Shown piece after piece: positions 845 to 42,812 of a DNA stretch of 64,000 nt (position 1 is the first letter of the stretch; each line of letters begins with the position of its first letter). The notes below the pieces were generated by a model. The model was given only the letters and a program-made list of their open reading frames with translations. It did not search any database and had not been told where the DNA came from. Position numbers and translations under genes: made by a program. The DNA lies in contig JACQCH010000007.1 of the NCBI GenBank assembly GCA_016201735.1, positions 17,900 to 81,899 of the forward strand, written 5' to 3'. Source of the stretch: Candidatus Omnitrophota bacterium. GTDB lineage: Bacteria; Omnitrophota; Gorgyraeia; 1-14-0-20-64-10.

Positions 845-2254
845 CTATTCACAATTTTCACCCAACATCTTAACCAGCGTAGCCAGCAGTTCCTGAAGCT
901 TCGGGTCATTTCCCCTAGCTGAAGAGACCCTTTGGCAGGCATAGAGAACCGTTGCGTGGTCCCTGCCACCAAAGGCCTCTCCGATGGCAAGCAGAGAAGC
1001 CTCGGTCAACTCCCGCGAAAGAGCCATGGCGACCTGCCGGGGAAGGGCCACCTCCTTGGTCCGGCGTTTTCCACGGATGTCATTCACTGTTAGGTTAAAA
1101 TAACTCGCCACCACCCGCTGAATTCGCTCCAGAGTCACCCGTTTCGCCGTCTCGGCGACCATTCCCTTCAAGGTCTCCTGCGCCATTCCGAGCGTAATCC
1201 CCCGGCTCACCAGGACCGAGTAGGCAATGACCCGATTTAAAGCCCCCTCCAGCTCCCGAATATTGGAAGAAACCCTCTCAGCGATAAAAAGGGTCACGTC
1301 GTCGGGCACCTCCTGTCCCTGAGCCGCCGCCTTTTTTCGGAGAATGGCGACGCGAGTCTCCAGATCCGGAGGATGGATGTCGGTCACCAGCCCCCACTCA
1401 AACCGTGAAACCAAACGCTCCTCGACGCCGCGGAGCTCTTTCGGAGGCCTGTCGCTGGAGATCACCAACTGCTTATGGGCGTCGTAGAGGGCGTTGAAGG
1501 TGTGAAAGAAACCTTCCTGCGTCGACTCCTTCCCTCCGATAAACTGAATGTCATCGATCATAAGAACATCGGCCGACCGGAATCGATCCCGGAAAGAAGC
1601 CATCGTCCGGTTTTGAATCGCCCCAATGAGTTGATTCGTGAACCGTTCGCTGGAAAGGTAGATACACCGTGCCTGTGGAAAACGTTCTTGGAGCCGGTGT
1701 CCAATGGCCTGCATCAGGTGGGTCTTCCCCAACCCCACCCCCCCATAGATAAACAGAGGATTGTATGCCTTCGCGGGGGACTCACTGACCGCCAGCGCCG
1801 CCGCATGGGCGAACCGGTTCGAAGGGCCGATGACAAACTGTTCAAAGACGTAGCGGGGATTCAAGACCGGCCTGGGCCCGACGGGAGACGAAGAGACCTC
1901 CGGCTGCTCCAAGGATTTCTCGGGAAGCGTCGCCGTCGCCTGAGCGGCGCCCGTCATCAGGCCGTGCAGGTTTGCCAGGGGCTGTCTGGTTTGCGAAGCG
2001 ATCGTGAACTCGATACGCACCTTGGAGGGATAAAGGCCTCCCAGGATCCGGTCGATCAGCTCCGTGTAATGACTGGAGATCCAATCCCGGAAGAACGGGC
2101 TGGGAACCTCGACGATGAGAGAGGTTCCGGTCGACGACACGGCCCGCGTCGGCTGAAACCAGGTTTCGTAGGCTTGACTCGGCAACTCACGCTGAATGCA
2201 GGCGAGCGCCTGATTCCAAAGATTGAGATCCAACGGTTCCATTCGAAAGGACAA
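845..2254 (-). CDS. dnaA: Chromosomal replication initiator protein DnaA
   Basis: 469 aa. Walker A GGVGLGKTHL, AAA+ core, C-terminal DnaA-box binding helix (KRRTKEVALPRQVAMALSRELT). Confidence 0.95.
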   Translation of the reverse strand: MSFRMEPLDLNLWNQALACIQRELPSQAYETWFQPTRAVSSTGTSLIVEVPSPFFRDWISSHYTELIDRILGGLYPSKVRIEFTIASQTRQPLANLHGLMTGAAQATATLPEKSLEQPEVSSSPVGPRPVLNPRYVFEQFVIGPSNRFAHAAALAVSESPAKAYNPLFIYGGVGLGKTHLMQAIGHRLQERFPQARCIYLSSERFTNQLIGAIQNRTMASFRDRFRSADVLMIDDIQFIGGKESTQEGFFHTFNALYDAHKQLVISSDRPPKELRGVEERLVSRFEWGLVTDIHPPDLETRVAILRKKAAAQGQEVPDDVTLFIAERVSSNIRELEGALNRVIAYSVLVSRGITLGMAQETLKGMVAETAKRVTLERIQRVVASYFNLTVNDIRGKRRTKEVALPRQVAMALSRELTEASLLAIGEAFGGRDHATVLYACQRVSSARGNDPKLQELLATLVKMLGENCE

Positions 2255-2350: not shown

Positions 2351-2551
2351 ATGACCCCGCCCCTCCATGGGTTTCTCTGGAGCAAGGTGGGGATAACGCA
2401 CGTTCCTCAGAGTATCAGAGGGGGGACCTTGTACATTAAGGCAGCTTCTAACTTGCTCCAGAGAATAAAAGCTCATGAAGCTTTTCGGGACGCCCAAGAG
2501 ACTCCTCAAGGGTGTCCCTCAAGCGTCCCGACCCATGGAGGGGCGGGGTGA
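2351..2551 (+). repeat. TIR-bounded structured repeat, copy 1 (201 bp) in the rpmH 5' leader
   Basis: Left terminus aTGACCCCGCCCCTCCATGGG and right terminus CCCATGGAGGGGCGGGGTGA are perfect 19-20 bp inverted repeats. Internal hairpins (ctctggagcaagg/ccttgctccagag; aaaagct..agctttt; cgggacgc..gcgtcccg). ~80% identical to copy 3. Confidence 0.75.
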
Positions 2552-2685
2552 AGAAACACCTGAAGCCGATCTCGATCCTCAAGCGGAAACGCCGGCATGG
2601 ATTTCGTCGACGGATGTCCAAAAAAGGGGGCCGCAAAGTGCTCAGACGCCGACGACAAAAAGGGCGCCGCCTCCTGATTCCGTGA
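2548..2685 (+). CDS. rpmH: 50S ribosomal protein L34
   Basis: Frame from GTG 2548 gives [45 protein letters not shown] (45 aa), a classic L34. The GTG lies inside the right TIR of repeat copy 1, 8 nt after GGAGG. Confidence 0.8.
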
Positions 2686-2688
2686 GGA

Positions 2689-3072
2689 TTGAAGAGCGGC
2701 CCCTCCGAAATGCGGCCGGCCAAGCTGACAAAATCAAAGCGATTGATGGGAGGAGACGGTTTTCGACGCCTTGTGCGGTACGGGAAACGTCTTCGGGCGA
2801 GCGATTCCCTCCCCGCCGGCTGGCTGAGCTTAACGGTGCTTCCCAACGGTTTGTCTTACAGCCGGTTCGGTTGCACCGTCCGTCGACGGGCAGCCGCCGG
2901 AGCCGTTTCTCGGAACCGCTTAAAGCGGTGGCTCCGGGAGGCGTATCGGCTCAACCAGAGCGAATTTCCGTCGGGGGTCGACCTGCTGGCGGTTGTTTTA
3001 CAAGCCCCTGCGGGACTTACTTTTCAGACGGCGCAGCAAGCTCTGCGGAACCTTTCCCGCCGCCTGGCCTAG
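2689..3072 (+). CDS. rnpA: Ribonuclease P protein component
   Basis: 127 aa; KLTKSKRL...[16 protein letters not shown] motif; follows rpmH as in the conserved rpmH-rnpA-yidD-yidC operon. Start could be ATG 2710. Confidence 0.8.
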
Positions 3073-3083
3073 CGGCCAGGATT

Positions 3084-3314
3084 CTGTTTCGAGGGATTCG
3101 GTTTTATCGAGAGGCCCGTTTGAGCGGGCTCTTTTCCACCCTTGGGCTGATCGAATCCGGGTGTCGATTTTATCCAACCTGTTCCCGATACATGGAGGAG
3201 GCGGTGGTGCGGCATGGGTTTTATAGAGGGATACGGCTGGGTCTGCAGAGGATGCTTCGGTGCCATCCGCTCCAGCAGCCAGGTGGATGGGATCCGGTGA
3301 TAGAAACGAAATGA
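3084..3314 (+). CDS. yidD: Membrane protein insertion efficiency factor YidD
   Basis: C-terminal part of ORF 2475..3314 reads [47 protein letters not shown], the YidD signature. Start codon uncertain (CTG 3084 or TTG ~3117). Confidence 0.65.
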
Positions 3315-3448
3315 CCCCGCCCCTCCGTTCCTGCGCTGTCGAACAGCGCAGGACAGCCAAGATAGAGTTTGACAGCGCCTGTGCCGAGCGATTGCTCGGC
3401 ACCATGAAAGGCCGTTCGGCCTTTCATGGGAACGGAGGGGCGGGGTGA
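3311..3448 (+). repeat. TIR-bounded structured repeat, copy 2 (138 bp) between yidD and yidC
   Basis: Termini TGACCCCGCCCCTCCGTTCC / GGAACGGAGGGGCGGGGTGA are inverted repeats sharing the ACCCCGCCCCTCC core with copies 1 and 3. Interior is three perfect hairpins (cctgcgctg-tcgaa-cagcgcagg; gccgagc-gatt-gctcggc; catgaaaggcc-gttc-ggcctttcatg). Confidence 0.75.
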
Positions 3449-4974
3449 AACCTGAACAGCGACTCTTGTTGGCGCTCGGGCTTACCTTGGGGATCCTCCT
3501 CTCCTGGACGATGCTGCTTCCTCCCTCACAGCAACCCCCCGCGACAAATACACAACTTAATGGAAATAAAGTAATTAGAAAAATAGATAGGCTGGCGGAG
3601 CCACTTTTTTCGGTGGAGAATGGACCGTTTAAGTTAGGGATAGGAACTCAGCGAGGCGGCATTCAAACCGTTCGGGTGGAAGGAAGCGATCTATTGGTCT
3701 CTGCTAACCCAGGGCTGTTCCAGGTGGAACGGATAGAATCCAGCGAGACGCCCCTGCAGTTTGAAAGTCGATGGGAAAGCGGAACCCTTTTAAGCACGTC
3801 GGACCTGACTTCTCAAGGGAGCCGAATCATTCGTCAGATTTCAATTCCTGGGGATAGCCATAACTATTTGTTGGAATGTAAGTTAAAACTATCAAACGAA
3901 TCTAAAACAACCCAGGAATATCAACTCCGGATAGTAACGTATCTTCCCCTCCATCTGCCGATCTCCAGCGATCAAAGGTATCAGGATGGGATCGTTTCCA
4001 TCGATGGGAAGATCCAACACATTCGCCTAAAGCCGAACCAGATACTTCGGTTTTCCGGATCCCCCGCCTGGATCACGGCTCAAGGGAAATCCTACGCCCT
4101 TATTCTCCAGCCCAGGGTTCCTTTGGGAATGTTCCACGTGGAACATTCCTCCTCAGGGGTTCCGGTTGGGTGGTTGACCCTCCCTCCGGTTGAATTGGCT
4201 CCCGGGGGACAGAGCCAGTGGGATTTTAAGCTGTACGCGGGGCCGATGAGCCTGGAAAGCTTAAAGAAAGCAGGACTAGAGGAAACTATTTCTTTTGGGG
4301 CATTTTCCGGTATAGCGAAATTCCTTTTCGGAATCCTCCGCTGGAACCAGGGCTGGATGAAAAATTACGGTTTAGCAATCGTCCTTTTAGGATTTCTGAT
4401 CTGGAGCCTCTTTTTCCCGGTGACCTGGTCCGGCATCCGGATGACAAAAGTAATGGCAAAACTGCAGCCCCAGATGGAGAGGATCCGGAAAGAGTACGGG
4501 AAGGATCCGCAGCGGATGAACCAGGAAATGATGCGGTTATATAAGAAAAACAGGGTGAACCCATTAAGCGGATGCCTCCCACTCCTGTTCCAGATGCCGA
4601 TATTTATTGCTCTGTTTCAGGTGCTGAGCCGGTCGCCGGAACTGCGGGGCGCAACCTTCCTGTGGATTCGAGATCTCTCAGCCCCAGACGCCCTCATTCA
4701 TTTCCCGTCGACGATTCCTCTTTTGGGAAACAGTTTAAATCTCCTGCCGATCCTGATGATGGGGGGTATGTTTCTCCAGCAGCGGATGAACAAGACTCCT
4801 GAAACCACCCTTACTGAAGAGCAAGCGATGCAGCAGGGATTCATGCGCTGGTTTCCCCTCCTCTTCGGATTCCTCTTCTATAGTCTTCCTTCCGGTCTTG
4901 TGTTATATTGGGTGACCAATACCACTCTAACGCTCGGGCAATATCTCCTTTATTTTCGACTGCATACAGAATAA
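3445..4974 (+). CDS. yidC: Membrane protein insertase YidC
   Basis: 509 aa; N-terminal TM, large periplasmic domain, C-terminal 5-TM core (GCLPLLFQMPIFIALF...). The GTG start lies inside the right TIR of repeat copy 2. Confidence 0.9.
   Translation: MKPEQRLLLALGLTLGILLSWTMLLPPSQQPPATNTQLNGNKVIRKIDRLAEPLFSVENGPFKLGIGTQRGGIQTVRVEGSDLLVSANPGLFQVERIESSETPLQFESRWESGTLLSTSDLTSQGSRIIRQISIPGDSHNYLLECKLKLSNESKTTQEYQLRIVTYLPLHLPISSDQRYQDGIVSIDGKIQHIRLKPNQILRFSGSPAWITAQGKSYALILQPRVPLGMFHVEHSSSGVPVGWLTLPPVELAPGGQSQWDFKLYAGPMSLESLKKAGLEETISFGAFSGIAKFLFGILRWNQGWMKNYGLAIVLLGFLIWSLFFPVTWSGIRMTKVMAKLQPQMERIRKEYGKDPQRMNQEMMRLYKKNRVNPLSGCLPLLFQMPIFIALFQVLSRSPELRGATFLWIRDLSAPDALIHFPSTIPLLGNSLNLLPILMMGGMFLQQRMNKTPETTLTEEQAMQQGFMRWFPLLFGFLFYSLPSGLVLYWVTNTTLTLGQYLLYFRLHTE
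4130..4145. promoter_or_regulatory. parS: parS centromere-like site TGTTCCACGTGGAACA (inside the yidC CDS)
   Basis: Perfect 16-bp palindrome matching the parS consensus TGTTNCACGTGNAACA; extended palindrome AATGTTCCACGTGGAACATT at 4128-4147. Confidence 0.6.
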
Positions 4975-4976
4975 AG

Positions 4977-5180
4977 ATGAAACAGAAAGAAACCCGATCT
5001 GTAGAGGCAGAAGGACGCACCGTCCAGGAAGCGATCGGGAAAGCTCTTTCGACTCTTGGGGTTCCTAGGAGTTCCGTCACGGTTTGGGTATTGGCGGAGG
5101 AAAACAAAGGGTTGTTCGGGATGCGGGGAGCCAAACCTGCCCGGGTGAAAGTCAGGCTGAAGGCCGAGAATAAAACCTGA
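4977..5180 (+). CDS. Small Jag/KhpB N-terminal (Jag_N) domain protein
   Basis: MKQKETRSVEAEGRTVQEAIGKALSTLGVPRSSVTVWVLAEENKGLFGMRGAKPARVKV resembles the Jag_N domain. Occupies the position where jag normally follows yidC; only ~68 aa, with no KH/R3H part. Confidence 0.5.
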   Translation: MKQKETRSVEAEGRTVQEAIGKALSTLGVPRSSVTVWVLAEENKGLFGMRGAKPARVKVRLKAENKT

Positions 5181-5196
5181 TGTTCCACGTGGAACA
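5181..5196. promoter_or_regulatory. parS: parS centromere-like site TGTTCCACGTGGAACA immediately upstream of parA
   Basis: Identical 16-bp palindrome to the 4130-4145 site; intergenic, 23 bp before parA. Confidence 0.65.
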
Positions 5197-5218
5197 CCTG
5201 TCCTGAGCTAGTCGAAGA

Positions 5219-6166
5219 ATGTCCAAAATCATCGCGGTCTGTAATCAAAAAGGCGGGGTCGGCAAGACCACGACGGCAATTAACCTGGGAGCCGACCTGG
5301 CCTTCTCCGGAGATCGAGTTCTCCTGATCGACCTGGATCCCCAGGCGAATGCGACCGGCGGACTGGGAATTGATAAGAAAGGGGTTTCCCAGTCGATTTA
5401 CCAGGCGATCTTCGACGGAGTTCCGATGGGGAAGGCCGTTCTGACGACTAAGATTCCAAATCTGTGGCTGGTTCCTTCCCAGACCGCTTTGTCCGGCGCC
5501 GAGGTAGAATTGGTTAGCTTGCCCGCCCGCGAAGAACGGCTCAGATCGGCCCTGACCCCCCTGCGCTCCTCCTACGATTGGATCCTCATCGATTCTCCTC
5601 CATCCCTGGGACTCTTGACCGTCAACGCCTTGACTGCGGCCGACAGTATCCTCATTCCTCTCCAGTGCGAATATTACGCCCTAGAGGGGTTAAGCCAGCT
5701 TCTGGAGACCGTCCGCCTGGTTAAGGAGCATTTGAATCCTGCCCTATCCATGGAAGGAATTCTCCTCACCATGGCTGATTTTCGGACGAAGTTAACCAAC
5801 GATGTAATCCAGGAAGTCCGCCGGTTTTTCGGGTCCCAGGTATACGACCTGGTGATTCCCCGGTCGGTTCGTTTGAGTGAAGCCCCGAGCCACGGGTTGC
5901 CGATCCATCTTTACGATCCACAGTCCGCCGGGGCCAAAGCGTACCGACTGTTGGCGGAGAGAATAAAGAGTTGCTGCCGGCCCGGGGAAACCGGAAGCTG
6001 GCAGCCAAGACAAGAGGAGAAAAATGCCGATGCCAGAGAATCGTGGACTAGGCAAAGGGATACGGGCTCTGATTCCGGAGGGGCCCCCGCAGTCCAAGAA
6101 GACCTCGGAGGAGCAGATCAAAGTTCCTCTGGAGGCGATCCGGCTCAATCGATTCCAGCCGCGTAA
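5219..6166 (+). CDS. parA: Chromosome partitioning ATPase ParA/Soj, with an unusual ~60-aa C-terminal extension
   Basis: MSKIIAVCNQKGGVGKTTTAINL deviant Walker A. Frame stays open past the usual Soj end (…AYRLLAERI) and overlaps parB by 143 nt. Confidence 0.85.
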   Translation: MSKIIAVCNQKGGVGKTTTAINLGADLAFSGDRVLLIDLDPQANATGGLGIDKKGVSQSIYQAIFDGVPMGKAVLTTKIPNLWLVPSQTALSGAEVELVSLPAREERLRSALTPLRSSYDWILIDSPPSLGLLTVNALTAADSILIPLQCEYYALEGLSQLLETVRLVKEHLNPALSMEGILLTMADFRTKLTNDVIQEVRRFFGSQVYDLVIPRSVRLSEAPSHGLPIHLYDPQSAGAKAYRLLAERIKSCCRPGETGSWQPRQEEKNADARESWTRQRDTGSDSGGAPAVQEDLGGADQSSSGGDPAQSIPAA

Positions 6167-6908
6167 GAAAATCGATGAACCGAAGATCCAAGAATTAGCC
6201 GAATCTATACGTCAAAGTGGTTTGATTTACCCACTTTTAGTTAGGAAAATAGATAAAAGTGGTTTGAATAGACCAGAATACGAATTAATCGCCGGAGAGA
6301 GAAGGTATCGGGCCCTTCGTTTGATCGGAGAAACTGAGGCCCCCGTCATTGTGAAGGAGATTCCCGACCAGAAGGCGCTGGAACTTTCCCTGGTCGAGAA
6401 TCTTCAGCGGGAGGGACTCAACCCCATCGAAGAGGCGTTGGCCTATCAACGGTTGGTTCAGGAGTTCGAGTTGACCCAGGAAGAAATTGCGGCCGCAATG
6501 GGAAAGGATCGGGCGACGATCGCCAACACCTTGCGGCTTTTGAAGCTGGATTCCAAAGTGCGGGAGGAGCTGATCCAGGAACGGCTGACCCTGGGGCATG
6601 CCCGAGCGCTCCTGGGGGTCGAATCACAGCCGGCCCAAATCCTTTTGGCTCAGCGGATCGTCGCGCAGGGGCTTTCCGTCCGTCAACTGGAGCGGATTGT
6701 GCGGGAAATGACCACCCGATCCCGGAGAGGGCGCGTCTCTAAGACGGAGGATCCACACCTGAAGGACGCAGAGGGCCGTTTGAAGAGATCGTTGGGCACA
6801 CACGCGGAGATTCTTCCCGGAGGAGTTCACGGGCACTCCGGCGGCTGGATCCGGATCGCCTATTACTCTTTGAAGGATTTGGACCGCCTCTTGGCAAGGT
6901 TGACTTGA
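6024..6908 (+). CDS. parB: Chromosome partitioning protein ParB/Spo0J
   Basis: N-terminal RGLGKGIRALIP, GERRYRA motif, HTH, C-terminal dimerisation domain. Confidence 0.9.
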   Translation: MPMPENRGLGKGIRALIPEGPPQSKKTSEEQIKVPLEAIRLNRFQPRKKIDEPKIQELAESIRQSGLIYPLLVRKIDKSGLNRPEYELIAGERRYRALRLIGETEAPVIVKEIPDQKALELSLVENLQREGLNPIEEALAYQRLVQEFELTQEEIAAAMGKDRATIANTLRLLKLDSKVREELIQERLTLGHARALLGVESQPAQILLAQRIVAQGLSVRQLERIVREMTTRSRRGRVSKTEDPHLKDAEGRLKRSLGTHAEILPGGVHGHSGGWIRIAYYSLKDLDRLLARLT

Positions 6909-6939
6909 AAGGCCTATCTTCTATAATAGAATTTTTACC

Positions 6940-7143
6940 ATGACCCCGCCCCTCCATGGGTTTCTCTGGAGCAAGGTGGGGATAACGTGTGGGTGTGTTC
7001 TTCCGAATATTAGAGGTCAGACATTGTACATCGAGGTGACTTCCAACTTGCTCCAGAGAATAAGAGCTCGTGGAGCTTTTCGGGACGCCCAAGAAGATCC
7101 TCAACAGCGCTCGGGCGTCCCGACCCATGGAGGGGCGGGGTGA
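6940..7143 (+). repeat. TIR-bounded structured repeat, copy 3 (204 bp) between parB and ndk
   Basis: Same termini as copy 1 (aTGACCCCGCCCCTCCATGGG ... CCCATGGAGGGGCGGGGTGA). Internal differences from copy 1 largely preserve hairpins (agagctc-gtg-gagcttt vs aaaagct-catga-agctttt). Confidence 0.75.
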
Positions 7144-7646
7144 TCCAACAAACACTGGTTTTAATCAAGCCGGATGGGCTTGTCCGCTCCCTGACGGGGA
7201 ACATCCTGACCCGGCTATCCGAGACGAAGCTGGAGATTGTGGCGGCCAAGATCACCCGGGTTTCCAAAGAGGTGGCGGAAGCCCAGTATCGCCAGCTTCG
7301 GGACAAACCGTTTTACCCGGAGCTGATCCAGTATCTTCAAGGGGAACTGCACGACCGCCGAAAGGTTCTGGCCATGATCTATTGGGGGCAGCATGCGATC
7401 ACGAAACTGCGAAGTCTGGCCGGATCGACAAATCCCGAAGAGGCGGATCCGGTTTCCATCCGGGGTTCTTACGGGCGGATCCGAACCAGCGGCCTGTTTG
7501 AAAATGTCATTCACGCCTCTTCCTCGGAAGCGGAGGCAGAGCGGGAGATCAAGCTTTGGTTTCAACCGGATGAGATCATCGTAGACCTTTACCCCACCCA
7601 GGAGGTCACCTTAAAAGAGGTAAAGGTTCGGCAATGGGCTCCCTGA
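7140..7646 (+). CDS. ndk: Nucleoside diphosphate kinase
   Basis: VIQQTLVLIKPDGLVRSLTGNILTRLSE...; Ndk fold motifs plus a C-terminal extension. The GTG start is inside the right TIR of repeat copy 3. Confidence 0.85.
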   Translation: MIQQTLVLIKPDGLVRSLTGNILTRLSETKLEIVAAKITRVSKEVAEAQYRQLRDKPFYPELIQYLQGELHDRRKVLAMIYWGQHAITKLRSLAGSTNPEEADPVSIRGSYGRIRTSGLFENVIHASSSEAEAEREIKLWFQPDEIIVDLYPTQEVTLKEVKVRQWAP

Positions 7647-10763: not shown

Positions 10764-10835
10764 GGCGCGGTAGCCAAGTGGTAAGGCAACGGTCTGCAAA
10801 ACCGTTATTCGTCGGTTCGATTCCGACCCGCGCCT
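10764..10835 (+). tRNA. tRNA-Cys (GCA)
   Basis: Cloverleaf folded by hand: acceptor GGCGCGG/CCGCGCC, anticodon loop CTGCAAA, T-arm GTCGG-TTCGATT-CCGAC; no encoded CCA. Confidence 0.8.
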
Positions 10836-10853
10836 TGTTTGATTTGATCCGGG

Positions 10854-10936
<83 letters not shown>

Positions 10937-10952
10937 CGAATTGAAAAATTTT

Positions 10953-11030
10953 GGGCGGTTGGCGCAGTCCGGTTAGCGCGTTTCCTTGACATGGAAAAGG
11001 CCACTGGTTCGAATCCAGTACCGCCCACCA
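10953..11030 (+). tRNA. tRNA-Val (GAC), CCA encoded
   Basis: Acceptor GGGCGGT/ACCGCCC, anticodon loop TTGACAT, T-arm ACTGG-TTCGAAT-CCAGT, 3' ACCA. Confidence 0.8.
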
Positions 11031-11758: not shown

Positions 11759-12550
11759 GTGGGTACACGACGGCACCGTTATTGCGCGCGGATGTTAGGG
11801 TTTATGCGAAATCTAGATGAGATTCCGAGTTCCGGACCCGGCACTTTTGGAAATGGTACCGGATATTACCCACGTTTTTATCCTAAAGCGATGACAGCAA
11901 AGTCAGTAGATAACATATTAGCTAGCATTGAACTTCCTCTAAGTCCGGCAGAGCTATATCGGGAATTAGATATGGCTCTTAAGGATCGAGATCCCTACGA
12001 TTTTGTCGCTGACAGAGGAGCTAAAAAAGCGCGAGAATGCTGGGTCGCTAGCCAATTTCTCGAGACCCACTCCCAACGGACATGCCGACGCTATCAAATA
12101 ACGAATATCGTAACGGAGGCACCGGACGTCGAATATCGAGATACAGCAAATCTTACCGAAATACTATCTATCGAAGTGGCAGAGTTGCTGAGTCCTGACC
12201 GTAGGCGATCGGAAGAATATTTGAGAGAGAAAGAAGAACGGGAAACGTGTGCTAGGGAGAACCGCGAATACAGCTCCAATCCAAAGGACCTTTCTCAGGA
12301 GTTTCTTGAGAAAGAAAAAGCCCAATTTCCGATTGTTGCTGCTCAGGTTCTGGAAGAAAAACTGGTAAATAGCTACGGACCCAACTGCACGCTTATTCTT
12401 TACGTAGGTCTTCGGCTGTTCGGCCGGGAGCCGATTCTCAGCTTTATAAAAACGTATCGGTTTACATCTGTAAATAGGTTTAGAGAGATTTGGTTTCTTT
12501 ATAATAGAGGAGACATAATCCCATTACAAGAGTCGGCGAGCCAGAAATGA
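11759..12550 (+). CDS. Hypothetical protein in the low-GC islet (start uncertain)
   Basis: 263-aa ORF with AT-rich codon usage. Its stop TGA overlaps the ATG of the thrS-5' duplicate. Confidence 0.35.
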   Translation: MGTRRHRYCARMLGFMRNLDEIPSSGPGTFGNGTGYYPRFYPKAMTAKSVDNILASIELPLSPAELYRELDMALKDRDPYDFVADRGAKKARECWVASQFLETHSQRTCRRYQITNIVTEAPDVEYRDTANLTEILSIEVAELLSPDRRRSEEYLREKEERETCARENREYSSNPKDLSQEFLEKEKAQFPIVAAQVLEEKLVNSYGPNCTLILYVGLRLFGREPILSFIKTYRFTSVNRFREIWFLYNRGDIIPLQESASQK

Positions 12551-12617
12551 GTAACGAGTTGCATCGACTACGGCACAGCGCGGCCCATATCCTGGCGCAG
12601 GCGGTCAAGCGGCGATG
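12547..12617 (+). pseudogene. Diverged duplicate of the thrS 5' end (MSNELHRLRHSAAHILAQAVKRR*)
   Basis: ~85% nucleotide identity over ~68 nt to the authentic thrS start at 12914 (MSDELHKLRHSAAHILAQAVKRLW); terminated after 23 codons. Confidence 0.55.
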
Positions 12618-12762: not shown

Positions 12763-12919
12763 GTGATCAGCTCCGATTACGAAGATCTGTTCAACACATT
12801 AAACGCTCATAGGATCAAGTACCTTGTGGCGGGGGCCCATGCGGTCATGTTCTACTCGGAGCCCCGGTTTACCAAAGACAATCTGGATCTGGCCAAGCTG
12901 AGAAAGCGTCGGGATGAGT
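12763..12919 (+). pseudogene. Truncated N-terminal fragment of a nucleotidyltransferase-like gene (…IKYLVAGAHAVMFYSEPRFTKDNLDL…)
   Basis: 52-codon frame ending in a TGA that overlaps the thrS ATG; sequence resembles the N-terminus of Pol-beta-superfamily NTase toxins. No plausible full-length gene. Confidence 0.3.
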
Positions 12920-14632
12920 GACGAGTTGCATAAACTGCGGCACAGCGCGGCGCATATCCTGGCGCAGGCGGTGAAACGCCTCTGGCCCGGGACGAAGCTG
13001 GCCATCGGCCCGCCGATCGAGGAGGGTTTCTACTACGATATCGCCCCACCGCAGCCCTTGACCGACGAGGATCTGCCGAAGATCGAGCAAGAGATGGCTA
13101 AGATCATCAAGGGGGACATCCCTTTCCAGCAGTCCTGGATGTCGAAGGAAGAAGCATCCTCTTTTTTTGAAAAGCGGGGCGAACCGTTCAAGCAGGAGAT
13201 TATCCGGGACATTCCGGACCCGAAAGTCTCGATCTACACGAATGGGGATTTTGTGGATCTGTGCGAAGGGCCCCACATGAATTCCACCGGAGAGGTGAAG
13301 GCATTCAAGCTCACGTCGCTCGCCGGGGCCTACTGGCGGGGGAACGAGCGGAATCCCCAGCTGACCCGGGTGTACGGGACCGCCTTTTTCAAGCCGGAGG
13401 AGCTGGAGAATTTTCTTAAAGTCCGGGAAGAGGCCAAGCGCCGAGACCATCGGAAACTGGGCCAGAGCTTAAAGTTGTTTTCGATTCTTGAGGAGGCGGG
13501 AGCCGGTTTTGTCTTCTACCATCCCAAAGGGGCGGTGTTGAGGCAGATCATCGAGGAGTACTCGCGGCGGCAGCATGCTTCCCGCGGCTACCAGCCGGTG
13601 ATCACCCCCCACATCATCCGGAGCGACATCTGGGTCCGGTCCGGCCATTACGATTTCTACAAGCCGAACATGTACATCTTCCGGATCGAGGAGCAGGAGT
13701 GGGGGGTCAAGCCGATGAATTGCCCGGGCCACATCCTGATCTACAAATCGGCCCTGCGCAGCTACCGGGAGCTTCCCCTCCGGTTCTTCGAGCTGGGGAC
13801 GGTCTACCGGAACGAGAAGTCCGGCGTCCTGCACGGACTCCTGCGGGTCCGGGGATTCACGCAGGACGACGCCCACATCTTCTGCCGGTTGACCCAATTA
13901 GAGGCGGAGATCGAAGCGGTCCTGGAATTTATTCAGGCCGCCATGCGGGATTTCGGGTTTTCAGAGTACCGGGTGGAGATGAGCACCCGCCCGCCGGAAT
14001 TCTTAGGAGATGCGGGACAATGGACCCGCGCCGAGGAGATTCTGATTCGGGTTTTGAAGGCCCGGAACATTGTTTACACGGTAAGCCCCGGAGCGGGCGC
14101 TTTCTACGGGCCGAAGATCGACATCCATATCAAGGACACGCTGGGCCGGTACTGGCAATGCGCCACCGTCCAGCTGGATTTCGTCCTGCCGCAGCGGTTC
14201 GACTTGAGCTACGTGGAAGAGAACGGTCAGGAAGCGCCGCCGGTGATGATTCATCGGGCGATCTTCGGATCGCTGGAACGGTTCTTGGGGACGCTGATCG
14301 AGCAGTATGCCGGCGCCTTCCCTGTCTGGCTGGCTCCGGTGCAGGCGGTGGTGATTCCTCTGACGAAAGACCAGGAGCCGTACGCCGGGACCCTGCTGCG
14401 GGATCTGGCCGAGAAGAATCTGAGGGTGGAGTTGGACGATCGCCGGGAAACATTGCAGGCTCGGATCCGGGACGCGGAGATGAACAAGGTACCGTACATG
14501 CTGATCGTCGGAAAGCGGGAAGCGGAGTCAGGAAAGATTGCTGTCCGGGCCCGGGGCACCGGCGATATCGGCGCGATGTCAGTGACGGAATTCGTTGAGC
14601 GTGTAACACTGGAAGTCCAGCAAAAACGATGA
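12914..14632 (+). CDS. thrS: Threonine--tRNA ligase (lacks the N-terminal TGS domain)
   Basis: 572 aa starting at the N2/editing-domain motif LRHSAAHIL; class II motifs and anticodon-binding domain present. Confidence 0.9.
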   Translation: MSDELHKLRHSAAHILAQAVKRLWPGTKLAIGPPIEEGFYYDIAPPQPLTDEDLPKIEQEMAKIIKGDIPFQQSWMSKEEASSFFEKRGEPFKQEIIRDIPDPKVSIYTNGDFVDLCEGPHMNSTGEVKAFKLTSLAGAYWRGNERNPQLTRVYGTAFFKPEELENFLKVREEAKRRDHRKLGQSLKLFSILEEAGAGFVFYHPKGAVLRQIIEEYSRRQHASRGYQPVITPHIIRSDIWVRSGHYDFYKPNMYIFRIEEQEWGVKPMNCPGHILIYKSALRSYRELPLRFFELGTVYRNEKSGVLHGLLRVRGFTQDDAHIFCRLTQLEAEIEAVLEFIQAAMRDFGFSEYRVEMSTRPPEFLGDAGQWTRAEEILIRVLKARNIVYTVSPGAGAFYGPKIDIHIKDTLGRYWQCATVQLDFVLPQRFDLSYVEENGQEAPPVMIHRAIFGSLERFLGTLIEQYAGAFPVWLAPVQAVVIPLTKDQEPYAGTLLRDLAEKNLRVELDDRRETLQARIRDAEMNKVPYMLIVGKREAESGKIAVRARGTGDIGAMSVTEFVERVTLEVQQKR

Positions 14633-19025: not shown

Positions 19026-19032
19026 AGAAATG

Positions 19033-19240
19033 TCCCTGCGGTGTTCGTGATTGGTCGAAAGCGATTCTGAACCAACAGCAGAATCGTAGGGAGCTTGACT
19101 TCAGCGGTGGAGAGCAGGCCCACCGGGTGTTGAAACAGGCCCGGAGGGAAGCAAGAAACCGGTGAGCAGGTTCCCGATGGTGAAGATACCAGGTTCAAGA
19201 ATGGATTCGACACACGGCATTCGCGGGGACGTTTTTTTGA
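19033..19240 (+). ncRNA. Candidate small RNA (~205 nt), possibly 6S RNA-like
   Basis: Starts just downstream of the promoter above and ends at a T7 run (gacgtttttttg) 22 nt before rarA. 5' GTCCCTGCGG pairs with 3' CCGCGGGGAC to close a long terminal helix; internal hairpins cgattctg..cagaatcg and ccggg..cccgg; no coding potential. Confidence 0.35.
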
Positions 19241-24081: not shown

Positions 24082-24573
24082 ATGCTGAAAATCAAAAGTT
24101 CAATCCTACAGAAGATGATTCAGTATTGCGAGAAGGAAAAACAGGAGGCCGGCAACGAAGCATGCGGCTATCTTGTGGGCCGGGATGGCGTTGTAACGGA
24201 GGCTTATCTCGTAGAAAACGCTCATCGGAGCCCCACGAGTTATCACATGCAGCCCGTAGCACAGCTCGTGCTTCAAAAGACGCTTCGGGAGTTGAAGTTG
24301 GAGGAGATGGCAATTTATCATTCTCACGTGGCGACACAAGCTTATCCTTCGCGCCGCGATATCGATAACGCGACAGCTGTTCAAGATCTTTTCGACGGCC
24401 ACTACGTACTGGTCTCATTGCAGGAACCGGGCCGGCCTATTGTTAAAGCCTTCAAAATCCGGGACGGGAATGTTCAGGAAGAGGAAATTCAGGAGGTGTC
24501 GCCCGAAGGGCGTCATCCTCGCGGAAGCGAGGATCAGCGAAGGGAAGATTCCCGCTTTCGCGGGAATGACTAG
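24082..24573 (+). CDS. JAMM/MPN+ metalloprotease (Mec+-like), C-terminally extended by a REP-like element
   Basis: JAMM motif E…HSHV…S..D (EMAIYHSHVATQAYPSRRD). Last ~20 codons and the stop are encoded by the palindromic element at 24513-24570. Confidence 0.7.
   Translation: MLKIKSSILQKMIQYCEKEKQEAGNEACGYLVGRDGVVTEAYLVENAHRSPTSYHMQPVAQLVLQKTLRELKLEEMAIYHSHVATQAYPSRRDIDNATAVQDLFDGHYVLVSLQEPGRPIVKAFKIRDGNVQEEEIQEVSPEGRHPRGSEDQRREDSRFRGND
24513..24570 (+). repeat. Bipartite REP-like palindromic element, copy A (hairpin ATCCTCGC-GGAA-GCGAGGAT plus hairpin GATTCCCGC-TTTC-GCGGGAATGAC)
   Basis: Two adjacent perfect hairpins; the second hairpin recurs at 27484-27509 (inverted) and 32540-32563. Confidence 0.7.
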
Positions 24574-27050: not shown

Positions 27051-28123
27051 CCGGAAGCCGTGGGGTGGCGATGAAGATGCAGGCCCGGTTCCCGAACTAT
27101 CGGCCGCGGCGGCTCAGGCAATTCCCGGTTTTGCGCCGGCTGATCCAGGAGACGCGGCTGATGCCGGAGCAGCTGATCGCTCCGGTTTTTGTCGCCTCGG
27201 GTCTGCGGCGGCGGGAGCCGATCCTGTCGATGCCCGGAGTTTTCCGGCTGCCGCCGGCGGAGGCGGTGGAGGAGGCCGCGGCTCTTTCGAAACGGAAGAT
27301 CGGAGGGATCCTTCTGTTTGGAATTCCGGACCGGAAGGATGAGGCAGGATCGGGCGCCTTCGATCCCGACGGGGTGGTTCAGCAGGCGGTCCGGGCGATC
27401 AAGCGGGCGGTCCCGGATTTCACCGTGATCACGGACGTCTGCCTCTGTGAATACACGGCTCACGGCCACTGCGGGATTGTCCCGTCATTCCCGCGAAAGC
27501 GGGAATCGATCCTCCGGTCAAGCCGGAGGATGACGGTTTCCATCGATAACGACGCGACACTGCCGGTCCTCGCGAAGATCGCGGTTTCCCACGCGAAGGC
27601 GGGGGCGGACCTCGTCGCTCCGTCGGCGATGATGGACGGGCAGGTGGGGGCCATCCGGCGCTCACTCGACGCGGCCGGTTTCACCGAGGTTCCGATTATG
27701 AGCTACGCGGCGAAGTACGCGTCGGCCCTTTATGGACCGTTTCGGGAAGCGGTCGAGTCGGCCCCGAAATTCGGGGACCGGCGCAGCTACCAGATGGACC
27801 CGGCGAACCGGGAGGAGGCGCTGAGGGAGGTGGCGCTGGATATTAAGGAAGGGGCCGACCTGGTCATGGTCAAGCCGGCGATCGCTTACCTCGACGTGCT
27901 CAAGGCGGTGAAGGAAACGTTCCATTGGCCGACCGCCGCCTACCAGGTGAGCGGAGAGTACGCCCTGATCAAAGCAGCGGCTTCCAAAGGGTGGGTCGAC
28001 GAGAAACAACTGGTCCTGGAATTCGCCGCCGGGATCAAACGGGCGGGAGCGGATCTTATTATTACCTACTACGCTAAACAGCTTGCCGAATGGCTGAATG
28101 GAGGAAAGAATTCCCGTGAATGA
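27047..28123 (+). CDS. hemB: Porphobilinogen synthase (delta-aminolevulinate dehydratase), Zn-type, with an in-frame REP-like insertion
   Basis: RPRRLR, DVCLCEYTAHGHCG Zn site, IDNDATL. Between HGHCGIV and SIDNDATL sits a ~17-aa loop (PSFPRKRESILRSSRRMTV) encoded by the palindromic element at 27484-27534. Confidence 0.85.
   Translation: MTGSRGVAMKMQARFPNYRPRRLRQFPVLRRLIQETRLMPEQLIAPVFVASGLRRREPILSMPGVFRLPPAEAVEEAAALSKRKIGGILLFGIPDRKDEAGSGAFDPDGVVQQAVRAIKRAVPDFTVITDVCLCEYTAHGHCGIVPSFPRKRESILRSSRRMTVSIDNDATLPVLAKIAVSHAKAGADLVAPSAMMDGQVGAIRRSLDAAGFTEVPIMSYAAKYASALYGPFREAVESAPKFGDRRSYQMDPANREEALREVALDIKEGADLVMVKPAIAYLDVLKAVKETFHWPTAAYQVSGEYALIKAAASKGWVDEKQLVLEFAAGIKRAGADLIITYYAKQLAEWLNGGKNSRE
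27484..27534 (-). repeat. Bipartite REP-like palindromic element, copy B (inverted relative to copy A), inside the hemB reading frame
   Basis: gtcattcccgcgaaagcgggaat + atcctccggtcaagccggaggat; its reverse complement matches the copy-A architecture. Confidence 0.7.
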
Positions 28124-32111: not shown

Positions 32112-32534
32112 GTGAAACCTTCCAGCGGAGTCCGTTACGCATTGACCGCTCTGGTGGATCTGACCCTTCACCAGCAGACCGGGCCGGTGACCGTCGCGGC
32201 GATCGCCAAGCGCCGGGGGATTCCGGTCCGGTACCTGGAACAGCTGTTCAACCGACTCCGGCGTCGCGGGATCGTAGCTGCCGAGCGGGGTCCCCGAGGA
32301 GGGTACCGTTTAAACCGAACCCCCGGGGAAATCCCAGTCAGTGAGATTTTCCACTGCTTGGAATCGGTCGATGCCGTTCACCCTGAGCAAGCCGATCCTT
32401 CCCTTGCGGTCTGGAAACAGGTGGAGGCGGCGGTCCAGACCACGTTGGAAGCGACCACCCTCGAGGCCCTGGTCGCCCAAGCCCGGGAGAGGGTCCCTTC
32501 TCCCATCAACCACCCGTTCACCTTCCACATCTGA
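32112..32534 (+). CDS. Rrf2-family transcriptional regulator (CymR/IscR-like; only one Cys, so probably no Fe-S cluster)
   Basis: N-terminal wHTH (VRYALTALVDL...IAKRRGIPVRYLEQLF). Confidence 0.8.
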   Translation: MKPSSGVRYALTALVDLTLHQQTGPVTVAAIAKRRGIPVRYLEQLFNRLRRRGIVAAERGPRGGYRLNRTPGEIPVSEIFHCLESVDAVHPEQADPSLAVWKQVEAAVQTTLEATTLEALVAQARERVPSPINHPFTFHI

Positions 32535-32539
32535 CGAGG

Positions 32540-32563
32540 GATCCCCGCTTTCGCGGGGATGAC
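32540..32563 (+). repeat. REP-like palindrome, copy C (GATCCCCGC-TTTC-GCGGGGATGAC), immediately after the Rrf2 stop codon
   Basis: Same hairpin family as 24547-24570. Confidence 0.6.
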
Positions 32564-32710
32564 GCTGCGCGTCAATTTTTCTTCCTGCCCCTCTTGTATT
32601 TTGGACGGCGAATCAGGTATGCTTTTTATGTAAAAGCACATTGACGCCAACGACCCTGTTATCAAGGCAAATCCGCCGCAAGGCGGAGACGCAAAGCTAG
32701 AGGGCCCCCT

Positions 32711-32780
32711 CGGGGCAGCCAGTTACCAGGGACGTAAAAACGGCCTTGGCTCCTTATAACAAGAGAGACCCAAGGCCGTT
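32711..32780 (+). repeat. Leader module 1: 38-nt motif GGGGCAGCCAGTTACCAGGGACGTAAAAACGGCCTTGG plus hairpin AACGGCCTTGG…CCAAGGCCGTT
   Basis: Direct repeat of the module at 32869-32938. Confidence 0.5.
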
Positions 32781-42738: not shown

Positions 42739-42812
42739 TGCCCTGTCGTCCAATGGTAAGACACCAGATTCTGGATCTGGGTATCTAGGTTCGAGTCCTA
42801 GCGGGGCAGCCA
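42739..42812 (+). tRNA. tRNA-Gln (CTG), U1:A72, CCA encoded
   Basis: Acceptor TGCCCTG/CGGGGCA, anticodon stem CCAGA/TCTGG with loop TTCTGGA, T-arm CTAGG-TTCGAGT-CCTAG, 3' GCCA. Confidence 0.75.

Follow-up and report, generated by a model that had tools for sequence, protein, structure and literature searches.

A MITE-like repeat family in start codons of Omnitrophica and a proposed translational relay across the insertion

Described repeats at or near gene starts

The MIRUs of Mycobacterium have been a typing marker for decades and, to our knowledge, neither their mobility nor their targeting has ever been explained. In its passages on these repeats, PMC12548453 (citing Supply et al. 1997) reports their insertion at start codons with an ORF that is coupled to the gene by a -4 nt overlap. 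Together with the corresponding passages of PMC3184786, it places them at start codons or intercistronic junctions, with short direct repeats and with empty and filled sites, reads them as low-impact insertions and describes them as 40-100 bp long, often arranged in tandem arrays (VNTRs) and bounded by only imperfect terminal inverted repeats (TIRs). As far as these accounts go, the principle of start-codon insertion is already described for mycobacterial MIRUs, and previously for those only. The repeat family presented here shares with them the insertion at start codons or junctions (18 of 18 unique copies lie at starts) and the -4 coupled ORF, which ends at a GTGA in 14 of the 18 copies. Compared by description alone, it differs in its length of 132-216 bp, in being always single at a site, in its Omnitrophica hosts, in perfect TIRs of 17-20 bp that encode GGAGG and the G of a GTG start codon, and in a conserved three-arm fold.

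The REP2 repeats of Neisseria and related upstream repeats of Borrelia lie directly upstream of genes and supply RBS and initiation codon (PMC3184786). REP2 lacks TIRs and brings along a promoter, an RBS and an ATG; that source does not describe it as an insertion with target duplication into an existing start. The present family has perfect TIRs, shows no promoter match inside the three copies described below and contributes only the G of the new start. Correia elements (CREE/NEMIS) are TIR-bounded MITEs of ~100-150 bp that are co-transcribed with genes, and their TIRs pair in the RNA to a helix which is cleaved by RNase III, affecting expression (PMC10969869). They duplicate TA, have 26-bp TIRs as well as promoter and IHF motifs, and are not confined to start codons (PMC10969869). 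In contrast to the present family, which duplicates TGA and has an unrelated TIR sequence, they show no coupled ORF or SD/start design. The Rickettsia palindromic elements (RPEs) are palindromic and mobile, measure ~150 bp, and can persist in essential genes owing to a length and frame compatible with translation (PMC10969869, PMC3184786). RPEs lie inside coding sequences and are translated within the protein, whereas the ORF of the present element ends at the gene start. A possible exception is one copy of 172 nt (L126), whose old ATG is in frame with the host gene and where an in-frame fusion is possible.

Anatomy of three copies and their empty sites

The window, i.e. the whole 64-kb stretch of DNA that was analysed, contains three copies of 201, 138 and 204 nt, all less than 5 kb from dnaA (845-2254, minus strand, divergent from rpmH), which marks the chromosomal origin region. 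The other genes, the repeat copies with their parts and the promoters located in the window lie on the plus strand. Copy 1 (2351-2551, counted from the old ATG through the right TGA; core 2355-2548) sits in the start codon of rpmH (2548-2685, ribosomal protein L34), copy 2 (3311-3448; core 3315-3445) at the point where the yidD stop and the yidC start overlap as ATGA, and copy 3 (6940-7143; core 6944-7140) in the start codon of ndk. An earlier note, made from the sequence alone, had described these three TIR-bounded copies, and their inverted repeats are indeed perfect over 18, 17 and 18 nt (2355-2372 with 2531-2548, 3315-3331 with 3429-3445, and 6944-6961 with 7123-7140). The TIR reads CCCCGCCCCTCC, extended by ATGGGT in copies 1 and 3 or by GTTCC in copy 2; the left arm of copy 1 (CCCCGCCCCTCCATGGGT) carries CCUCC, the complement of the Shine-Dalgarno sequence (SD) in the right arm. 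With up to two mismatches, the 15-nt terminus is matched seven times in the window, as against 0.63 expected matches, and none of 100 shuffles reaches seven. Six of these matches are the three TIR pairs and the seventh, at 52140, is a chance match with two mismatches; the terminus scan found no further copy between 7.2 and 64 kb.

In the right arms, GGAGG occupies 2537-2541, 3434-3438 and 7129-7133, and the junction reads GGAGG-GGCGGG-G followed by TGA, which leaves exactly 6 nt between GGAGG and GTG and not the 8-9 nt given earlier. The G of the new GTG is the terminal base of the element (2548, 3445 and 7140) and its TG comes from the duplicated target. The claim that the repeat itself supplies SD and start codon is therefore correct for the SD and the G, but not for the TG. 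Every copy is flanked on either side by a TGA (2352-2354 and 2549-2551; 3312-3314, which is the yidD stop codon, and 3446-3448; 6941-6943 and 7141-7143). This TGA is a 3-bp direct duplication and not, as had been assumed, the outermost part of the inverted repeat. The earlier note mentioned neither the duplication nor the insertion inside a pre-existing start codon, nor the stop-free frame to GTGA.

The gene starts at the three GTG codons agree with Pfam matches that begin at residues 2-3 of L34 (PF00468, residues 2-43) and NDK (7140-7646; PF00334, residues 3-146, profile positions 1-135). For yidC (3445-4974), the start at 3445 follows from the NCBI annotation of YidC at 509 aa, a protein that is matched with 100% identity. 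The gene yidD (3075-3314, PF01809) has an uncertain exact start. If the element is removed in silico together with one TGA, rpmH, yidC and ndk regain an ordinary ATG start (for copy 1: ATGAAGAAACAC, MKKH...), and the old ATG persists at the left end of each copy.

All three loci have empty NTGA counterparts in the syntenic relatives L118, L119 or L120, as seen from the comparison of orthologous upstream regions that had been proposed. The rpmH counterpart in L118 reads TAGAATCATAAC GTGA AGAAACAC, the yidC counterpart GAATTCC ATGA AGCCTGAACAG, and the ndk counterparts are TTTTAACC ATGA TTCAACAG in L118 and TTTTAACC ATGA CCCAACAA in L119. The rpmH and yidC sites are occupied in other relatives (L120 and L119, respectively) by copies with different interiors.

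These sites bear on the idea that no insertion took place and that the operons natively possess the repeats as cis-regulatory leaders or as small leader-peptide genes. Their 5' location, their strong structure and an ORF of 43-71 codons would suit such a role. However, orthologous loci that precisely lack the element already contradict it, the same ends precede at least 15 unrelated genes, and direct TGA repeats flank the copies. Moreover, a search of 5.8 billion proteins gave no homologue of the internal ORF, whose peptide varies from copy to copy outside the part dictated by the TIR. Rfam gave no match at the gathering threshold and at E ≤ 1 only a spurious miRNA match (E = 0.47). We regard a native leader as extremely improbable. 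The earlier opinion that the family is not a described one agrees with the Rfam result, but not with the start-codon behaviour that PMC12548453 reports in its passages on MIRUs.

The family, its reading frame and its fold

Metagenomes were scanned for paired termini with unconstrained flanks, requiring a perfect 12-nt core at both ends and a gap of 120-180 nt. Decayed copies at neutral sites could be under-represented because of this requirement, although none turned up when the fetched loci were searched with relaxed settings. The scan yielded 15 TGA-flanked metagenomic copies (13 unique), and the metagenome search together with two relatives gave 18 unique copies from Omnitrophica MAGs and groundwater metagenomes, carried by 16 different genes on many contigs. 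All 18 have the 12-nt terminal core in common, and 17 are flanked by TGA on both sides, four of these by TGAA; the exceptions are L120 with TGG on the left and an additional partial copy, L134, with GGA on the right. Each of the 18 occupies the functional start codon of a housekeeping gene, these genes being unrelated to each other, so that, for the copies found, the preference for gene starts on which the earlier note had staked its reading is borne out. The base before TGA at the insertion sites is A in 13, G in three, T in two and C in none of the 18 copies. After each metagenomic copy, an ORF of 180-390 aa starts at the terminus GTG, and the downstream Pfam domains mostly begin at profile positions 1-3 and protein residues 2-7.

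As a null model, of all TGA/TCA sites in the window at which an insertion would be non-disruptive, less than 10% are start codons. Neither ~345 kb of fetched loci nor further host contigs contained a degenerate or off-start copy, and the insertion sites are not surrounded by an extended DNA motif. An autonomous IS with the same TIRs or a transposase was found neither in the window nor in ~400 kb of fetched loci, the collection scans spanning at most 600 nt. The case for mobility is therefore based on the empty and filled sites and on the TIR and target-duplication anatomy. With its TIRs, target duplication, small size, lack of a transposase, dispersed copies and empty and filled sites, the family has the features of a MITE, as the earlier note had suspected.

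The frame that begins at the old start codon is free of stops in 15 of 18 copies, compared to seven of 18 when the cores are flipped, and in 14 of 18 it runs up to the new GTGA, whose TGA is its stop. Frames 2 and 3 are open in 0/17 and 3/17 copies. In 13 of 17 copies the length is a multiple of three (P = 3.4e-4) and every one of these ends at the GTGA overlap; L120 is the fourteenth. That selection works on the copies once they are in place is shown by their orientation and their open frames. In three copies, of 161, 176 and 188 nt, the frame is lost and stops come early, yet these copies are identical in independent assemblies, which means that an in-frame relay is not obligatory.

Upstream of the element, an ORF of 160-500 codons terminates at the left TGA (NTGA overlap) in 10-11 of 18 copies, and a -10 box lies 6-9 nt upstream in five of 18. 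Most target genes lack an SD of their own. The sigma-70-like promoter which had been noted in front of copy 1 (2312-2341, TTGACA-18-TAGAAT, TG-extended) indeed matches 11 of 12 consensus positions. Only 9 nt lie between the end of its -10 box and the old ATG, an arrangement kept in L118, L119 and L120, so that the rpmH transcript is predicted to have little or no leader. A second strong promoter site precedes copy 3, where two overlapping promoter matches (6900-6932, TTGACT-16-TATAAT and TTGAAA-16-TAGAAT) have -10 boxes ending 7-12 nt before the old ATG, and this arrangement is kept at the empty sites of L118 and L119. No promoter-like site was found on the gene strand inside the three window copies.

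The RNAs of the window copies fold with -115, -100 and -115 kcal/mol (z = -10, -13 and -8), each with a terminal helix of 18-20 bp that closes three to four hairpins, in agreement with the pairing of the left terminus with the SD/start region that had been proposed. All 18 copies have a terminal helix of 13-20 bp and about three arms (z from -5 to -12). In clade A, both sides have changed in 25 of 46 pairs. The share of paired cells is 92.8%, a value that none of 500 shuffles (79.7%) reaches and that falls to 41-49% when the partners are slid; the topology of clade B is the same. The terminal helix and the three hairpins are thus supported by compensatory base changes, the outcome of a check suggested in the earlier note. 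G-U pairs are rare in the hairpins, which fits a constraint at the DNA level as well as one at the RNA level.

Taken together, we consider it probable that this is a non-autonomous, MITE-like element of Omnitrophica which resides in start codons and is bridged by a translational relay. Observed are the anatomy of the insertions, their empty counterparts, the confinement to start codons, the open frame and the shared fold; that coupling or unfolding carries expression, and all that concerns movement, is inferred. Each copy is integrated at the TGA of an NTGA whose NTG is a functional start codon, and this TGA is duplicated. As the left junction still reads NTG-A, the original initiation signal of the gene is intact, whether it lies in a -4 overlap with the gene before it, in a leaderless-type promoter or in an SD, and would now start the stop-free ORF across the element. 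At the right junction, the terminal repeat contributes a consensus SD, optimally spaced, together with the G of the new GTG; the duplicated TGA adds the TG of this start and at the same time closes the element ORF as its stop codon. In the RNA, the pairing termini (CCUCC with GGAGG) would mask the new ribosome-binding site until ribosomes that initiate at the old codon, or arrive there from the upstream gene and terminate, open the helix. On reaching the UGA of GUGA, they would stop and begin anew on the host gene. PMC12548453 reviews models of translational coupling by unfolding and by re-initiation. Since translation would pass from the old start codon through the element to the GTGA junction, the insertion would be tolerated; with expression relayed in this way, it should do little harm.

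It is also conceivable, albeit unlikely, that with the same anatomy the host gene is initiated directly at the SD and GTG of the terminus once the helix has been cleaved by RNase III or melted as a thermosensor, the open frame being incidental or merely preventing polarity. The predicted helix does sequester SD and GTG, RNase III is encoded on host contigs, the three out-of-frame copies persist unchanged, and RNase III processes the TIRs of Correia elements in Neisseria (PMC10969869). However, direct initiation does not predict the strong excess of stop-free, multiple-of-three copies ending at GTGA, and a cut within the helix would fall in or beside the SD. With its stop-free frame to GTGA, the family lends better support to translational coupling than to a switch that works as a thermosensor or through RNase III, so that from the alternatives in the earlier note the MITE holds and the switch fares less well.

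Target choice and meaning of the element

With regard to movement, the highly stable hairpins, Watson-Crick on both strands with few G-U pairs, together with the strict 3-4 nt target at insertion and the TGAA of four copies, recall folded ssDNA that is moved by an HUH/Y1-type enzyme of the IS200/IS605 (PATE) or REP/RAYT kind. One TGA would then be the short target, with insertion on its 3' side, and the other would belong to the element as its own end, so that the apparent duplication would not be a staggered-cut TSD. We think this distinctly unlikely. The ends of IS200/IS605 are separate subterminal hairpins and not inverted repeats of each other, unlike the perfect 17-20 bp TIR found here. 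Moreover, the fetched loci contain no TnpA or RAYT gene, and the L159 copy has the opposite orientation with the same junctions, as would be the case for a symmetric TIR element.

A start-codon location could also arise with no targeting at all, a view that departs from our preferred explanation solely in the origin of the distribution. Any TGA would serve as a target, and fixation in very large populations would be limited to harmless or beneficial insertions, the benefit being, for example, a consensus SD for an SD-less gene; consensus assemblies would then show start-codon copies only. The base before TGA tracks start-codon usage, the sites have no extended DNA motif, orientation and frame openness reveal selection after insertion, and most target genes have no SD of their own, all of which speaks for this view, which we hold to be somewhat less likely than not. 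However, none of the 18 copies lies at a site of the intergenic or stop-codon type, although the 64-kb window has ~250 intergenic and 28 stop-codon TGA sites and at most 23 NTGA starts. Different subfamilies have also repeatedly hit the same two start codons, and the three window copies are clustered near dnaA.

Rather tentatively, and as an unlikely more than a likely possibility, the element might be actively directed to functional start codons by something that senses translation-initiation status and not DNA sequence, its symmetric TIR having evolved into a portable SD-plus-start module for either orientation. Integration might then be coupled to initiating or terminating ribosomes on the nascent mRNA, or to the DNA strand exposed there. 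We know of no transposon with such targeting and, if true, it would be a novel principle of target selection.

For annotation, genes that follow the element start at a GTG within the repeat, and gene callers sometimes extend them; one YjeF_N protein is called with 246 aa in one assembly and with 225 aa in another. The element ORFs themselves give rise to spurious "hypothetical proteins".

After the MIRUs, this family gives a second and independent example of a selfish repeat at home in start codons, and its anatomy is much cleaner than theirs. Its design is legible in the sequence, since the TIR encodes an SD together with its own anti-SD and the 3-bp duplication serves as the stop of the ORF and as two bases of the start, while the open frame is proposed to relay ribosomes across the insertion. 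We propose the element as a natural example of a portable translational-coupling cassette. Its exclusive residence in start codons poses the question of targeting sharply, with many filled and empty sites at which it can be studied.

Copies in the window and their surroundings

The three copies of the element, at rpmH, yidC and ndk, are present at the positions proposed in the earlier note, namely 2351-2551 (copy 1, 201 nt), 3311-3448 (copy 2, 138 nt) and 6940-7143 (copy 3, 204 nt). At up to two mismatches the 15-nt terminus occurs seven times in the window, compared to an expectation of 0.63, and none of 100 shuffles reached this number. Six of the seven occurrences are the three copy pairs, and no copy is located between 7.2 and 64 kb. 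The similarity between the copies extends precisely from ATGACCCC to GGGGTGA. Their terminal inverted repeats (TIRs) are perfect, consisting of CCCCGCCCCTCC plus ATGGGT in copies 1 and 3 (18 nt) and of CCCCGCCCCTCC plus GTTCC in copy 2 (17 nt).

The surrounding genes encode L34, the RNase P protein, YidD, YidC, Jag, ParA, ParB and NDK, with DnaA divergently encoded upstream, and this gene set is that of a chromosomal origin region. All three copies are found no more than 5 kb from dnaA, while some 20 further gene starts of the type NTGA (an NTG start codon followed by A) in the window are empty (crude P ~0.002). The origin-proximal blocks of two syntenic relatives, L119 and L120, likewise hold one copy each. 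The promoter postulated in front of copy 1 (2312-2341) matches the consensus at 11 of 12 positions, and a second promoter match (6900-6932) lies directly 5' of copy 3. The proposed start of yidC at the GTG of the right terminus agrees with the NCBI annotation of YidC in the source Candidatus Omnitrophica MAG, since its length of 509 aa places the start at this codon.

The window contains further repeats of other kinds. A separate short hairpin repeat (GTCATTCCCGCGAAAGCGGGAATGAC-like) occurs at 24538-24570, 27483-27516 and 32533-32564. Within a single coding region (33370-33790) there are seven overlapping tandem copies with 15-nt spacing (33580-33711) plus duplications of 36 and 39 nt, which suggests a Gly/Arg/Glu-rich repetitive protein. 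A direct repeat of 65 nt (12547-12611 and 12914-12978; 89% identity, 367 nt apart), both copies of which open with ATGAGT, may be a duplicated gene 5' end.

Insertion into start codons

On either side of each window copy the outermost TGA has the same orientation. Since it is direct and not inverted, it represents a 3-bp target duplication, and for the same reason an IS3-like end (TG...CA) that would include the terminal TGA was ruled out. Removal of the element and one TGA in silico restores ATGAAGAAACAC (MKKH) at rpmH, ATGAAACCTGAA (MKPEQ) at yidC, where it also brings back the yidD stop overlapping ATGA, and ATGATCCAACAA (MIQQTLVLIKPD) at ndk. Three syntenic relatives (L118, L119 and L120) were retrieved via YidC homologues with 67, 63 and 61% identity. 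In L118 the three sites are all empty, reading TAGAATCATAAC-GTGA-AGAAACAC at rpmH, GAATTCC-ATGA-AGCCTGAACAG at yidC and TTTTAACC-ATGA-TTCAACAG at ndk, so that real empty sites match the computed pre-insertion sequences. In L119 the ndk site is empty, and a copy of 132 nt occupies the same yidD/yidC junction as copy 2; L120 carries a copy of 216 nt in the same rpmH start as copy 1. Both belong to another interior group than the window copy at the matching site. The empty sites and the differing interiors at identical sites demonstrate that the elements are insertions and that the same start codons were hit more than once. The left side of the L120 copy (5973-5976) exhibits an imperfect duplication with ATGG instead of ATGA.

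By comparison of these sequences we show that the element integrated within the start codon with duplication of TGA, while the original initiation context was kept at the left junction. At the right junction the order is GGAGG, 6 nt, G|TGA. The element therefore supplies the Shine-Dalgarno sequence (SD) and the G, whereas the duplicated target contributes the TG of the new start codon as well as the stop of the element ORF, i.e. the frame running from the old start through the element. The earlier note was right in regard to a mobile element whose terminus provides SD and start codon, but it missed the insertion into a pre-existing start codon and the coupled ORF.

A metagenome collection was scanned for CCCCGCCCCTCC and GGAGGGGCGGGG at a gap of 120-180 nt, leaving the flanks free. 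This resulted in 38 loci, 15 of which are flanked by TGA...TGA (or TCA...TCA on the other strand), and 13 of these are unique. Another 22 loci are not flanked by TGA and were set aside as unrelated GC-rich palindromes. They form families on several contigs (L127, L147, L149; L125, L144; L123, L140, L158; L129, L148; L122, L133) that have the same pair of 12-mers, with the complementarity running outward (e.g. CCCCAC|...|GTGGGG). The remaining locus, L134, was kept apart as a partial copy with GGA instead of TGA on the right (3058-3060), 28 nt from the contig end. Together with the three window copies and those of L119 and L120, there are 18 unique copies, and all 18 are located in start codons. 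Among the samples in which the family occurs are the groundwater metagenomes ERZ978390 and ERZ27253378.

Downstream of each TGA-flanked metagenomic copy there is an ORF of 180-390 aa whose first codon is the terminus GTG. These ORFs encode an ArgD-type aminotransferase, RibD, DJ-1/PfpI, YjeF_N, CdsA, a GHMP kinase (IspE-like), Dxr, PanE, ArgG, an NAD-dependent epimerase, a SurA-like PPIase, a GT2 glycosyltransferase and an enolase-superfamily enzyme. As a rule, the Pfam matches of these proteins start within profile positions 1-3 and residues 2-7 of the protein, which indicates that the terminus GTG is the native N-terminus, and in public gene calls five of ten host proteins start exactly there. 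One host protein cluster includes a protein of an NCBI Omnitrophica MAG. The same YjeF_N gene is called with 246 aa in an NCBI MAG (L160, 10001-10741), reaching upstream into the element, and with 225 aa, starting at the terminus GTG, in further assemblies (L161, 3838-4515). The element thus gives rise to inconsistent start annotation. A lone right terminus (GGAGGGGCGGGG-TA-ATG) was observed in L128 (~2416-2444), where a ribD ORF ends and the following gene (MFTGLV..., RibE-like) begins. An older insertion in that start codon has probably left this remnant; the RibD C-terminus (...IGGAG*) resembles the element ORF.

When up to three mismatches across the two cores were allowed, the entire set of fetched loci (345 kb) yielded only the L119 copy and low-complexity noise, and neither the fetched loci nor further host contigs contained degenerate copies elsewhere. 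Viral contigs, scanned at gaps of 61-121 and of 120-180 nt, contained no copy. The 15-mer TSACCCCGCCCCTCC gave at least 117 single chance matches in contigs of GC-rich genomes, none of them paired among the matches listed.

Open frame, fold and a proposed translational relay

An ORF of 160-500 codons closes exactly at the left TGA in 10-11 of the 18 copies, from which it follows that the site was an NTGA stop/start overlap of co-directional genes. Five other copies, among them both promoter-proximal window copies, possess a TAnnnT box 6-9 nt 5' of the old start. Going by this spacing, transcripts with little or no leader would be expected. An SD-like motif is present upstream of only two of the 18 copies. 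In L119, rpmH is preceded by a 13-codon ORF (ATGCTTTTCGGG...CAGTGA, ~4678-4722) that begins 1 nt 3' of the -10 box and includes GGAGGA, and whose stop codon overlaps the GTG of rpmH as GTGA. This ORF represents a collapsed element or else a native mini-uORF fulfilling the same role.

The frame of the old start is free of stops in 15 of 18 copies as inserted, compared to 7 of 18 with the cores flipped. Of 17 copies, none is open in frame 2 and three are open in frame 3. Although the lengths from NTG to TGA are nearly all distinct, 13 of 17 are divisible by three (binomial P=3.4e-4). The frame closes on the TGA of the new GTGA in all 13 of them, and L120 (216 nt) is a fourteenth such copy. A conserved leader peptide was ruled out, since a search of the 66-aa element ORF against 5.8 billion predicted proteins revealed no homologue. 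The peptide is conserved solely where the TIR dictates it (MTPPL...GGAG), and both observations indicate selection for openness of the frame and not for the encoded peptide. In L159 the internal orientation is reversed with the same junctions and an open frame, exactly what a symmetric TIR would allow.

Four copies do not follow the in-frame rule. Those of 161 nt (L150/L156/L165-L167), 176 nt (L155/L163/L164) and 188 nt (L157) have early stops, and their lengths fall one base below a multiple of three. Frame 3 is fully open in all of them, as if each had lost a single base near the left end. Assembly errors in C/G runs were ruled out as their source, because the 161-nt and 176-nt copies recur base for base in independent assemblies; the out-of-frame copies are therefore real. 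In the fourth (L126, 836-1007, 172 nt, length mod 3 = 1) the old ATG is in frame with the gene of a SurA-like lipoprotein without any stop, possibly adding an N-terminal extension of 57 residues ahead of the signal peptide.

The terminal helix proposed in the earlier note is supported by folding. The window copies have predicted energies of -115, -100 and -115 kcal/mol (z -10, -13 and -8), with three to four hairpins enclosed by a terminal helix of 18-20 bp. All 18 copies are predicted to form such a helix, of 13-20 bp, together with about three arms (MFE -75 to -121 kcal/mol; z -5 to -12). The left arm (CCUCC) complements the SD, and we show from this complementarity that the two arms would pair. 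The interiors form two groups. Group A, which includes copy 2 and L120, has a conserved CCTGTGCC-TTCG-GGCACAGG hairpin, and 25 of 46 pairs are still paired after changes on both sides. Paired cells amount to 92.8%, compared to 79.7% in shuffles (0/500) and 41-49% with slid partners; the covariation score is 0.39 versus 0.157 (0/500). Group B, including copies 1 and 3 and L119, shares the topology of group A, and in 10 of 42 pairs both sides have changed. One-sided changes to G-U are infrequent (approximately 14 cells versus 67 double changes), so the hairpins stay Watson-Crick on both strands. This fits a role at the DNA level as well as an RNA function in either orientation. Since Rfam contained no match for the element at gathering or permissive thresholds, a riboswitch, ribozyme or leader of a known type was ruled out. 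Elsewhere in the window, Rfam identified a 6S RNA (19030-19233), a c-di-GMP-I riboswitch (32656-32730), a cluster of three tRNAs (10764-11027) and one more tRNA (42739-42809).

Mainly based on the excess of in-frame, stop-free copies, we infer a translational relay across the element. Ribosomes initiating at the old codon, or terminating there from the upstream gene, would open the terminal helix, traverse the stop-free frame, halt at the UGA of GUGA and then re-initiate on the host gene. Such a relay matches the coupling models by RNA unfolding and re-initiation reviewed in PMC12548453, according to which coupling is most efficient at small spacings. Since three out-of-frame copies persist, the relay is not strictly needed; opening of the helix by upstream ribosomes, processing by RNase III, which the hosts encode, or helix breathing may be enough in these cases.

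Known repeats and the choice of target

Our literature searches yielded no description of this element or of any Omnitrophica repeat family. Its behavior at start codons is not new in principle, since there is a precedent in the MIRUs, whose anatomy we take from the accounts in two reviews (PMC12548453 and PMC3184786). MIRUs have imperfect TIRs and direct repeats of four nucleotides, and their sites occur both empty and filled (PMC3184786). Their insertion at start codons, with an ORF coupled at -4 nt, is said to keep effects on expression minimal (PMC12548453, which cites Supply et al. 1997). According to these accounts, both elements work alike but differ in size, tandem organisation and host. 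Three features of the Omnitrophica element are not reported for MIRUs in the descriptions considered: perfect TIRs of 17-20 bp in which both SD and anti-SD are encoded, a duplicated TGA from which the new start and stop are built, and a three-arm fold whose conservation is accompanied by covariation. Neisseria REP2 and Borrelia repeats place promoter, RBS and ATG in front of genes (PMC3184786). A 2024 review on prokaryotic MITEs treats the cleavage of Correia TIRs by RNase III and RPE insertions that stay in frame, with no mention of start codons or coupling (PMC10969869). The element agrees with a MITE in everything that could be tested except for a known autonomous partner, which was not found in the window and ~400 kb of fetched loci.

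The window has approximately 1,800 TGA/TCA sites, with about 250 of them intergenic, 28 TGA stop codons and at most 23 NTGA gene starts, and none of the 18 copies lies in a stop-only or intergenic TGA. The base 5' of TGA is A in 13, G in three, T in two and C in none of the copies, and the 3' base is A in 13 of 18. Beyond these adjacent bases nothing is conserved around the sites, and there is no shared SD. The base before TGA tracks start-codon usage, and a motif of 4-5 nt cannot specify start codons. Either integration senses initiation sites independently of sequence, or only insertions into start codons become fixed in very large populations. The interest of this family rests on its very clean design, on its start-codon specificity (18/18) and on the question of how start codons get selected.
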